Positions 14,916 to 24,511 of a DNA stretch of 64,000 nucleotides are shown here, piece after piece. Position numbers and translations under genes: made by a program. Within the stretch, counting starts at the first letter, position 1, and each line of letters starts with the position of its first letter. Location of the stretch: contig JBHLSH010000001.1 of NCBI GenBank assembly GCA_048881705.1, positions 140,688-204,687 of the forward strand, written 5' to 3'. The notes below the pieces were generated by a model. It saw only the letters and a list, made by a program, of their open reading frames with translations, was not told the origin of the DNA and ran no database searches. Source of the DNA: Candidatus Heimdallarchaeota archaeon. GTDB taxonomy: Archaea; Asgardarchaeota; Heimdallarchaeia; Hodarchaeales; Hodarchaeaceae.

Positions 14916-15617
14916 TCAGTTTTTACTAAGTTCGGCCACCAGGATATCCCGAATGACTTGCTGGATGGGCATGATGATTCGTTGTACTGGCTGAGGTCGA
15001 GATTTCGGGTTCCAGTTTCCACTACTCCATGTTTCCTTTAATGCCTGTAAAGCCTCCAAACATGAAACTTCATGCACACTGGCAAAAGTGTCTCGTAACT
15101 TGTCCGAGACCCCTGCTTCCACCATCAAACGCCCAACATCTGCTGCCGAAATACGTGTGCCAACGGGTAAATCCATCTTATTTAGCATTATCTGCAATTT
15201 GACTTCTCCATTGAGGAGTTTATCTTCTAAGATCTCAAACAATTCCGTAAGCGAAGTTTTGTTCTCCTCCCACCGCGCAGATTCTGAATCCAACACGACT
15301 ATGATGCCATGAAGGCCATTCACAACGATCTTACGCATGCTTTTGAAACGATCTTGTCCAGGAGTCGTAAAGAGGTGATATTTAAATTCTCTTCCCGTAC
15401 CTGTACCCAAACCGAAGGTAGCCTGATCGAATCCGATGGTACGCTCCGTAGCCTTGTCTTCAAGTTTGAGGAAATTATAGACATTCTCGGGATCTTCCCG
15501 TTTTTTTATGGCGTGGAAAAGCGAGAGCGCCGTGGTCTTCCCAGCCATCGTTGCACCCCAAAAGACGATCTTAATTCCCTGTTTGCTCTCTTCAAAGACA
15601 ACCTCTTCTTGGCTCAA
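14916..15617 (-). CDS. Small GTPase, MglA-like (Ras superfamily)
   Basis: G1 GATMAGKT, switch I ERTIGFD, G3 FTTPGQ (MglA-type, lacks the DxxG Asp), GIIVVLDS, G4 NKMD. Confidence 0.87.
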   Translation of the reverse strand: MSQEEVVFEESKQGIKIVFWGATMAGKTTALSLFHAIKKREDPENVYNFLKLEDKATERTIGFDQATFGLGTGTGREFKYHLFTTPGQDRFKSMRKIVVNGLHGIIVVLDSESARWEENKTSLTELFEILEDKLLNGEVKLQIMLNKMDLPVGTRISAADVGRLMVEAGVSDKLRDTFASVHEVSCLEALQALKETWSSGNWNPKSRPQPVQRIIMPIQQVIRDILVAELSKN

Positions 15618-21019: not shown

Positions 21020-21499
21020 GTGTTTTTTAAAGTATGTTCGCACCACATTCTTGGCGATCATATTCTCGCAAACTTGGTATGGGGTTTATTTGTGGTGAAT
21101 AACGAGATTTTCTCACTTGAGGAGCCTTTTTCGTTTACGGAATTAGAAAAGAAAGGTTTAAGCATTAAACGGTCGGATCTAGCACAATTTGTAGAAAAAG
21201 GGAAACTGATGAGTAAAAAGATAGGCCGAATGACAATCTATTGGAATCATCCTTCGGTGACACCCGAAGCTACAACGGGCCTTGATTCCTTAGTTAATCG
21301 ACTGGAATTGGAAAACCAGGAACTGAAACGTGAGCTGCAATCTGAACGTGAAAAGGTACGCCGGTTTGAAATTCAAAATGGAGTTGACGAGCCGTGGAAA
21401 GAGGCAGCACTGGCCATGGCTCAAACCCTAGCTGAGCAAAAAGGAATTTCAATGCGGGAGGTGCTTGGTTATTTCAATGCTCCCCTTAATGAATTATGA
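21020..21499 (+). CDS. Mnd1-like winged-helix plus coiled-coil protein
   Basis: LAQFVEKGKLMSKKIGRMTIYWNHPS, then a coiled coil, then WKEAALAMAQTLAEQKGISMREVLGYFNAP. Both ends align without gaps to eukaryotic Mnd1 as I recall it. Start is uncertain (GTG 21020 or GTG 21092/21095). Confidence 0.7.
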   Translation: MFFKVCSHHILGDHILANLVWGLFVVNNEIFSLEEPFSFTELEKKGLSIKRSDLAQFVEKGKLMSKKIGRMTIYWNHPSVTPEATTGLDSLVNRLELENQELKRELQSEREKVRRFEIQNGVDEPWKEAALAMAQTLAEQKGISMREVLGYFNAPLNEL

Positions 21500-21509
21500 A
21501 GGCGATTTG

Positions 21510-22400
21510 TCATGTATCAAGTTCTTCCGATAAATCTGCAAGAGGAACTTCTTCCGCCTCTTTTTCTCCAGTTTCCCCTTCCTGAACCTCTCGAATCTCA
21601 GTTACTTCAGCCACTGTCTGGAAGATGCTATGAAGATCTTTGACTCGGAATTCATGTTCTTCTTCTTCGATTATTGTTGGTAAATGAACTTCCGCCCAAA
21701 CTTCATTTCCTGAATACCCTGTGAATGCAGAATGCATCTGCAGCTTCTCTTCGATAATTACTGAGTCCGTTAAGGTCAGGTTGGCAAAGCGAAGCTCGAT
21801 AAAACTGCCTTCGCTCTCCATCTCTACCTCAAGTGCAAAAGATTCCGCAAGGATTTCTGCGATAGACTGGAACATAGCTAAACTATGAATACTAGTGTCT
21901 TGTGCATTGACCAAGCAGAGATCTAGCTTTGGCCAGAGAATAAAAAGCATTCCTCGAACGTAATGTGTTTCGATAAGGTAATCCTGACTGCCTACAACCT
22001 CAGCCGGCTTCCTGCTAAACGATCTTTTCAACAAATCTGAGGCTGCACGACGGGATTTCGAATGTTTCTCGTGAATGATGGAGTAAAAATCATCTGTATG
22101 CACATAAACATCGGCCAACAGTGTGTGCCCTTCTTTGAACGAACGGGTGAGTTCCTTCACTCGCTGTGAATAACAGAATGTAGGCATCCCCTTCTTAGGC
22201 TCGCGTTTCAGTAATAGGACGTCCAAATACCGCCTTTCTGTACATTTCGGCCGAAGCATGTTCACAACTTTGTTATTCTGACATTGTTTAAGACAAAACT
22301 CCTTCCGATCCCGAACCATTTCCTCCCAGAGTGTAACGCCAGATACCCGGTTTAAGAAGCCCTGTGCAGTTTTGGAGCTTTCATTATCTGTCCAATTCAC
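21510..22400 (-). CDS. Hypothetical protein with acidic C-terminal tail
   Basis: 296-aa GTG ORF converging on the Mnd1-like gene (10 bp gap). Mixed alpha/beta sequence, with four Cys in the N-terminal third. Confidence 0.7.
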   Translation of the reverse strand: MNWTDNESSKTAQGFLNRVSGVTLWEEMVRDRKEFCLKQCQNNKVVNMLRPKCTERRYLDVLLLKREPKKGMPTFCYSQRVKELTRSFKEGHTLLADVYVHTDDFYSIIHEKHSKSRRAASDLLKRSFSRKPAEVVGSQDYLIETHYVRGMLFILWPKLDLCLVNAQDTSIHSLAMFQSIAEILAESFALEVEMESEGSFIELRFANLTLTDSVIIEEKLQMHSAFTGYSGNEVWAEVHLPTIIEEEEHEFRVKDLHSIFQTVAEVTEIREVQEGETGEKEAEEVPLADLSEELDT

Positions 22401-23803: not shown

Positions 23804-24511
23804 CTACTCACCACGATCTGGAATTTCCAATCCCGCCCTTTTCATAATAGAGCGCGCGGCCATTCCCTCGAACGAATCTGCTCCCTTCTTTGAATCATCA
23901 ATTATAATTGCTACCATTTTTACAAGGGATTCGAAGGATGGATTGATGAAATAGCGGATACCTGCTTCGAGAAGTTCACCAGGAGTGATATTACGCCGAA
24001 TTGCTGCTTGGTTAATTGCGGGCATATTCTGCTTAATTGTATCTAATACTTGTGGATCTAGGATTTGGATCTCAACCAGCTGTTTTTCCAGATTCTCAAT
24101 GTAGCTTTTTTTTTCTTTTAATTGGATGGTTAGGTTTTGTACGGACCGCTGGTAGTCTAAAAACCTCGAATCATCCAACAGACCACTAGAACGAACGTAA
24201 TCAGTGCATACACCACGGGAATCATTCACAATGATGTTTTGTTCCCTTTCAACCTTCTGTGCATAAAATTCTCGCCAATAGGTTTGATTAGGGAGCCCCA
24301 CGTAACGTCGAGATTGTCCCTTGGGAGATGAGACCTTAACGATCGCTACCTGATCCTGTGTTCGGTGGAGGGCCCCATCTACCTTCCCCCTCGACCATTC
24401 CAGTCTTGCTGCAAGATCTCTGACGGTCACAGGTTGAGCTAACCGTTCCAGCCTTGAAATGAGCTGAAAGTCGGTTACTTCGGAATCTCCACCGAAACCT
24501 TTGGGCACCAA
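23804..24511 (-). CDS. Winged-helix plus coiled-coil protein, Hop2-like candidate
   Basis: N-terminal wHTH LISRLERLAQPVTVRDLAARLEWSRGKVDGALHR, coiled coil DDSRFLDYQRSVQNLTIQLKEKKSYIENLEKQLVEIQ, then DPQVLDTIKQ, and C-terminal IMKRAGLEIP. Confidence 0.6.
   Translation of the reverse strand: MVPKGFGGDSEVTDFQLISRLERLAQPVTVRDLAARLEWSRGKVDGALHRTQDQVAIVKVSSPKGQSRRYVGLPNQTYWREFYAQKVEREQNIIVNDSRGVCTDYVRSSGLLDDSRFLDYQRSVQNLTIQLKEKKSYIENLEKQLVEIQILDPQVLDTIKQNMPAINQAAIRRNITPGELLEAGIRYFINPSFESLVKMVAIIIDDSKKGADSFEGMAARSIMKRAGLEIPDRGE

Follow-up and report, generated by a model that had tools for sequence, protein, structure and literature searches.

The window analysed here, a stretch of 64,000 nucleotides of DNA from an Asgard archaeon, encodes a small protein that we read as a minimal member of the Hop2/Mnd1/Swi5 superfamily. 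Going by its sequence, it is probably not an orthologue of Mnd1, since the three-zipper rod and the Hop2 partner are both missing. To our knowledge, Hop2-Mnd1 and Swi5-Sfr1 are listed with those factors of recombination and meiosis that lack prokaryotic counterparts. Our preferred reading, to which we give a probability of roughly 0.6, is that this minimal superfamily member acts as an accessory cofactor of RadA. The original prediction had presented the gene product as a shortened ancestral Mnd1. Its homology is borne out by profile-profile, profile-sequence and structure searches, but the choice of Mnd1 rather than Hop2 or Swi5 is not, because the best match of the C-terminal module is Swi5.

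The coding sequence and the architecture of its product

The forward-strand frame at 21020-21499, from which the original prediction started, is indeed open, and its longest reading gives 159 amino acids. The beginning of that frame is, however, not the likelier start. The coding sequence most likely runs from a GTG start codon at 21092 to a TGA stop codon and specifies 135 rather than 159 amino acids, as judged from the starts of homologues and from an in-frame stop codon upstream in the closest relative. Twenty-four close homologues, taken from a collection of 5.8 billion proteins, are 131-144 residues long, and all of them (24/24) begin at the residue that is encoded by GTG 21092; the 5′ extension at 21020-21091 is absent from every one. 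In the closest relative, whose protein is 93% identical, the stop codon lies inside this extension, where the DNA is identical at 160/170 positions. The extension holds an A/T-rich, putative TATA-like element at about 21023-21035. When 136 codons were compared with those of the same relative, 16 synonymous and 9 non-synonymous differences were counted, a pattern that would be expected for a gene under purifying selection. The features of the gene are as follows.

21092-21499, forward strand: most likely coding sequence of the Mnd1/Hop2/Swi5-like protein (from homologue starts, the stop codon upstream in the relative, and codon differences)
21020-21091, forward strand: 5′ extension, likeliest an untranslated leader or promoter (without counterpart in homologues; stop codon in the relative)
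21092-21247, forward strand: predicted winged helix of the Mnd1/Hop2 type spanning residues 1-52; wing motif KKIGRMxIYW (AlphaFold2, Pfam, hhalign)
21278-21376, forward strand: predicted single coiled-coil helix, leucine-zipper-like, residues 63-95 (AlphaFold2 with pLDDT 80-96; hhalign)
21392-21484, forward strand: two predicted capping helices with the invariant end motif PWKE..MA..L.EQK...E.L.YFNAP (AlphaFold2, invariant columns)

The order of parts that had been proposed from the letters alone, a winged helix, one coiled coil and a short helical cap, was found again in an AlphaFold2 model built with the family alignment (mean pLDDT 75.5 for the whole protein and 85.6 for the C-terminal half modelled alone). 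In this model, the winged helix (residues 1-52) is followed by a low-confidence linker, a helix at 63-95, and two short helices at 101-117 and 121-127. The coiled-coil helix is 33 residues long and forms the one zipper between the winged helix and the cap. It is placed by hhalign against the last zipper of MND1, and in relatives Pfam sets it against the Swi5 coiled coil. Conservation across the family is highest in the C-terminal cap with its end motif, and not in the DNA-binding head. A homodimer predicted from two copies of the protein scored 0.37, where the mark was 0.42 and one control gave 0.38.

Kinship with Mnd1, Hop2 and Swi5

Hop2, Mnd1 and Swi5 have been related to each other by HHpred, and the LZ3wCH end, in which capping helices fold back on the last zipper, is known to resemble Swi5-Sfr1C and to bind the Dmc1 filament (Kang et al., 2015; PMC4402518). 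Since the three families are already linked in this way, matches to Hop2, Mnd1 and Swi5 together are what is expected of a superfamily member.

The sequence link is strongest with MND1. For this comparison, vertebrate MND1 sequences, which make up its eukaryotic side, were fetched with a bait of 46 residues built on a block of the original prediction; the bait matched human MND1 at 100%, and both of the MND1 blocks quoted in that prediction are present in the vertebrate sequences. Against them, hhalign gave the archaeal family profile a probability of 96% (P 4.3e-9) at about 19% identity. The alignment is colinear over 144 columns, from the winged helix to the last residues (profile positions 11-154 against MND1 22-202), and places in the register first proposed both archaeal blocks as well as the ELEK..KG segment that precedes the first of them. 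Since reversed and column-shuffled controls gave P of 0.036 or more, the match to MND1 is, on these scores, more than chance. Taken by itself, the winged helix reached a probability of 94-95% (P about 1e-7). The C-terminal half by itself gave P values from 7e-4 to 3e-3 and kept the expected register, its cap lying against W169...FGIPED; a profile of only the cap had no significant match to MND1. About residues 77-115 of MND1, which link its wing to the last zipper, have no archaeal counterpart.

Comparison with Pfam gave a divided result, in which the family carries the kinship and the window copy stays below every cut-off. The window copy obtained 14 bits with the Mnd1 winged-helix profile PF03962 (cut-off 23.5; E 0.04-0.07), on the wing, and 15-16 bits with Swi5 (cut-off 22.1; E 0.013-0.022), at profile positions 50-75, which belong to the cap and not to the coiled coil. 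Among the 24 close members, matches at E of 1 or less were found to the Mnd1 winged helix in 24/24 (the best at E 9.4e-6), to Swi5 in 18/24, and to the Hop2 winged helix in 12/24. Three relatives exceed the Swi5 gathering cut-off of 22.1 bits over profile positions 1-79, namely P0048 (30.2), P0031 (28.3) and P0028 (24.5). P0028 and P0031 are tied to the window protein by the family profile in an exhaustive HMM search (about 1e-26 and 1e-21), and P0048 was recovered with the wider family profile A3 in a wider word-indexed search (1.5e-33). As for the LZ3wCH domain (PF18517), on which the Mnd1 proposal was to be checked, P0031 is the only relative that matches it, at E 0.0038.

With an E limit of 0.001, the exhaustive search, which was run with the close-family profile against 1.8 billion representatives, returned 20 proteins. 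None of these 20 was recognised as a eukaryotic relative, and the word-indexed search with the wider profile gave no match bearing a eukaryotic name. Several of the relatives differ in size and composition. Two longer archaeal forms of metagenomic origin, P0043 (355 amino acids) and P0044 (265 amino acids), have about 90-100 residues of coiled coil, a length nearer that of eukaryotic Mnd1 and Hop2. With such forms in the family, the 135-residue protein may be either ancestral or reduced. Another, P0029 (274 amino acids, from a record named Hodarchaeota), has two nearly identical winged helices in tandem, which are followed by the zipper and cap.

When the wider-family profile was compared with all sequences in the PDB, Giardia Mnd1 headed the list (4y66_A, E 4.8e-5), followed by the Hop2 winged helix (2mh2, E 5.5e-4), and S. 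pombe Swi5 stood fifth, over nearly its full length (3viq_B, E 5.9e-3). A profile restricted to the cap retrieved no Swi5, Mnd1 or Hop2 from the PDB.

Searches with the predicted model point to the same proteins. With the whole model, the best Foldseek match was a chain of the Hop2-Mnd1 complex (4y66_C; 134 columns, probability 0.95, E 0.013), ahead of the Hop2 winged helix in second place. In the ESM Atlas, eukaryotic Mnd1 makes up the four structure clusters closest to the model, with TM 0.46-0.50 by query over 98-113 residues. With the C-terminal half, two Swi5 chains of 3viq ranked first and second in Foldseek, at E values that are not significant (0.67 and 1.7), and in VIA-align Swi5 reached a Z of 5.1 over 74 residues, the runner-up scoring 3.2.

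Judged by these comparisons, the winged helix is homologous to that of Mnd1 and Hop2, and the zipper and cap together are the probable counterpart of the Swi5 domain and of the LZ3wCH end of Hop2-Mnd1. Membership of the superfamily, as delimited by HHpred and structure (PMC4402518), calls for a parallel zipper that ends in capping helices and for sequence kinship to at least two of the three families; such kinship is seen in the PDB ranks, in Pfam across the family, and in hhalign. On the same profile scores, the protein cannot be assigned to Mnd1 over its paralogue Hop2 or over Swi5, because the C-terminal module matches Swi5 best and the winged helix also matches Hop2.

The likeness to each known system has its limits. 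With Mnd1 (PF03962, PF18517; 4y66), the archaeal protein shares the order of winged helix, coiled coil and capping helices, together with a wing motif KIG....YW and a terminal W...FG(A/I)PE(D/E) in the same register, and Mnd1 is its best whole-protein match by sequence and by structure. However, Mnd1 has about 205 amino acids as against 135, and it has three zippers with two kinks and about 100 residues of coiled coil, whereas the archaeal protein has one zipper of 33 residues. Mnd1 is also an obligate heterodimer with its paralogue Hop2 (TBPIP; PF07106, 2mh2), whereas the archaeal genome has no gene for a paralogous partner. In addition, and in contrast to Mnd1, the archaeal protein is dispensable and has no tie to meiosis, and the window copy remains under the Pfam cut-offs. 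With Swi5/Sae3 (PF07061; S. pombe Swi5, 3viq chain B), the likely counterpart of the whole Swi5 domain is the coiled coil taken with the capping helices; in structure, the C-terminal half matches Swi5 first (E 0.67, Z 5.1), and relatives lie above its curated cut-off. Swi5 has no winged helix, whereas the archaeal protein carries one fused at its N-terminus. DNA binding in Swi5-Sfr1 comes from Sfr1, whereas no Sfr1/Mei5-like partner was recognised in the archaeal genome. The window copy, moreover, matches Swi5 in the cap only, at 15-16 bits.

Distribution, genomic setting and a possible role with RadA

A full-length family match was found in 13/400 Asgard genomes, that of the window included, which fall into five families in the grouping of the search tool. 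The carriers are 7 of the 21 other genomes of the genus, together with members of a sister family of that order and of three other families; one further Asgard genome has a fragment of the cap at the end of a contig. All named members come from Asgard archaea, with records named Hodarchaeales, Odinarchaeota and Thorarchaeota, and the family is small, patchy and so far known only from this group. The names given to records within the genus are not uniform, as P0002, P0016 and P0022 appear at NCBI under Thorarchaeota, Hodarchaeum mangrovi and Hodarchaeota and belong to one GTDB genus. Where the closest relative is labelled Thorarchaeota, the submitter has probably misassigned it. Taken together, the names make a Hodarchaeales-type Asgard archaeon the most likely host. 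Transfer between Thor and Hod lineages was considered and dropped, since this single GTDB genus holds records under both names. Elsewhere in the Asgard archaea, a protein of 167 amino acids (locus L031, 1342-1845, reverse strand) resembles the family profile in its winged helix and coiled coil, at E 1e-7 to 6e-10. It has a different C-terminal segment, its type occurs in 5/5 genomes of another Asgard family, and it may represent a more distant branch.

Five genomes of the genus, which are 93-99% complete and one of which is a single contig, have no family member anywhere, and the same five keep the neighbouring gene for a protein of 296 amino acids. The gene is dispensable and codes for an accessory rather than a core factor; since near-complete genomes do without it, it is not needed for recombination as such. 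A profile search of the window's own genome found a single copy, with the next match at E 0.14 and no paralogue, and nothing else in that genome reaches the Pfam cut-offs of Hop2 or Mnd1.

Two RadA clades have been described in some Asgard lineages (PMC12722695). The genome studied here has three full-length RadA-like genes with an N-terminal HhH (contig 1, 22670-23410; contig 82, 12753-13493; contig 40, 33632-34282), two of which share 62% identity, with the third at about 39% to each of these two, and it also has a shorter RadB-like gene. Between 3 and 5 RadA paralogues are present in each of 22 genomes of the genus, with 5 in the single-contig genome, and within the genus their number bears no relation to the presence of the gene (3-5 with or without it).

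By analogy with the eukaryotic complexes, a role as RadA cofactor can be pictured as follows. Two chains would pair through the zipper and, since the genome encodes no paralogue, would probably be copies of one and the same protein. Pairing would set two winged helices side by side, and these could hold duplex DNA, while the end formed by zipper and cap would dock on the RadA-ssDNA filament and stabilise it. A filament stabilised in this way would more readily capture the donor duplex and carry out strand invasion. Its possible clients are the three full-length RadA paralogues of the genome.

The flanks of the gene are ordinary chromosomal genes without a compositional break, among them those for a PLP-dependent decarboxylase, archaeosine tRNA-guanine transglycosylase, urocanase, an Arf-like GTPase, a P-type ATPase and ribonucleotide reductase. 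The nearest neighbours downstream are the following.

21510-22400, reverse strand: protein of 296 amino acids without a Pfam match, with an acidic C-terminal tail; convergent, with 10 bases between the stop codons
22724-24511, reverse strand: two-gene unit for a protein of 235 amino acids with a winged helix and coiled coil, and a protein of 358 amino acids

The 296-residue protein is encoded by the only conserved neighbour, which lies tail to tail with the Mnd1-like gene in the genus and the sister family, and is present also where the Mnd1-like gene is not. As the two genes converge, they are not co-transcribed. The 235-residue protein has a weak MarR-type match, and the 358-residue protein has two zinc-ribbon-like cysteine clusters, a coiled coil and a proline run; this fast-evolving pair has 20-33% identity within the genus, and hhalign shows no relation between it and the Mnd1-like family. 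Both the 296-residue neighbour (21510-22400) and the 235-residue protein (23804-24511) were considered as partners and set aside, since neither has profile similarity to the family. Small GTPases also occur nearby: one of the Arf/Ras-like type is encoded in the window at 14916-15617 on the reverse strand, and the Mnd1-like gene of the sister family (locus L050, 7841-11156) is adjoined by genes for two more small GTPases and a Roadblock-like protein. No recombination genes were found near the Mnd1-like gene in any lineage examined, four other lineages included.

This last observation would suit a true Hop2/Mnd1/Swi5 homologue that does another job, either as a small DNA-bridging or chromatin protein or as an adaptor whose cap binds a partner other than RadA. 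The patchy distribution of a dispensable gene, the lack of any relation in the genus between its presence and the count of RadA paralogues, and a cap that is the most conserved part are consistent with such a job as well. It is nevertheless rather unlikely, because the module acts on Rad51/Dmc1 filaments in every characterised member (Hop2-Mnd1, Swi5-Sfr1 and Mei5-Sae3; PMC4402518), and RadA is the direct archaeal counterpart of Rad51/Dmc1.

The structure searches also raise the question of whether the protein is an ordinary archaeal winged-helix transcription regulator that dimerises by a coiled coil, in which case its likeness to Mnd1 and Swi5 would come from a common fold and from coiled-coil composition. 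When VIA-align compared the whole model with 48,161 chains, the winged helix alone was matched, at Z 6-7 across many regulator families, and it ties there with ArsR, PadR and MarR regulators while the Hop2 winged helix stands at 6.3. Taken from the predicted model, the winged-helix fold alone does not tell Mnd1/Hop2 from other winged helices. Some distant members also score higher in Pfam for HTH_20, IclR or TrmB than for Mnd1. The profile of the C-terminal half has Swi5 as its only natural full-length match in the PDB, with designed and GCN4 coiled coils scoring as high, and a feature search of the ESM Atlas returned generic HTH clusters, all under the reliable score. Regulators with a coiled-coil tail, such as Sso10a (4hw0), Phr (2p4w), PadR and ArsR, share with the archaeal protein both the fold at Z 6-7 and a helical extension for dimerisation, but none of them has the conserved W...YF.AP cap, and across the family no profile match to them comes near the match to Mnd1. 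Against a regulator also stand the hhalign match, which runs colinear through both domains and stands up to the reversed and shuffled controls, the three related recombination factors within the top five PDB sequence matches, the Swi5 match of the window copy in the cap outside the coiled coil, and the relatives above the curated Swi5 cut-off. We regard an ordinary regulator as improbable. Finally, horizontal transfer from a eukaryote with later shortening would account for the patchy Asgard distribution, but it can hardly be credited for a protein with only about 19% identity to MND1, with no eukaryotic relative recognised in the exhaustive HMM (1.8 billion representatives) or word-indexed searches, and with members in several Asgard families.

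A probable origin of recombinase accessory factors before eukaryotes

We found no paper describing an archaeal Mnd1 or Hop2. A preprint of October 2026 lists, in a single line without description, a weakly connected Asgard-eukaryote structural cluster named 'Swi5/Sae3' (PMC13734099). It counts this cluster among the families not previously reported, and the cluster may be the family described here. The view held in the original prediction, that such factors are regarded as eukaryote-specific, is thus nearly intact in the literature, with this one line as the exception.

The duplication that gave Rad51 and Dmc1 has been placed after the split from the known Asgard archaea (PMC12722695). A putative DNA-binding head of the Mnd1/Hop2 kind joined to a putative filament-binding tail of the Swi5 kind suggests that recombinase accessory factors are older than this duplication, and the Mnd1/Hop2/Swi5 part of the toolkit for repair and meiosis probably predates eukaryotes, as far as sequence kinship can tell. 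A bolder proposal, which we put forward only tentatively, is that the family is the surviving pre-duplication form of Hop2-Mnd1 and Swi5-Sfr1, which pairs with itself and activates one of several RadA paralogues of the Hodarchaeales type. The protein of 135 residues is simple and expressible, which makes the question of origin testable, and the 3-5 RadA paralogues in the same genomes are natural candidates for its clients. If the proposal is true, the machinery for donor-duplex capture existed before eukaryotes and before meiosis, and both eukaryotic activator complexes would be linked to one ancestor.
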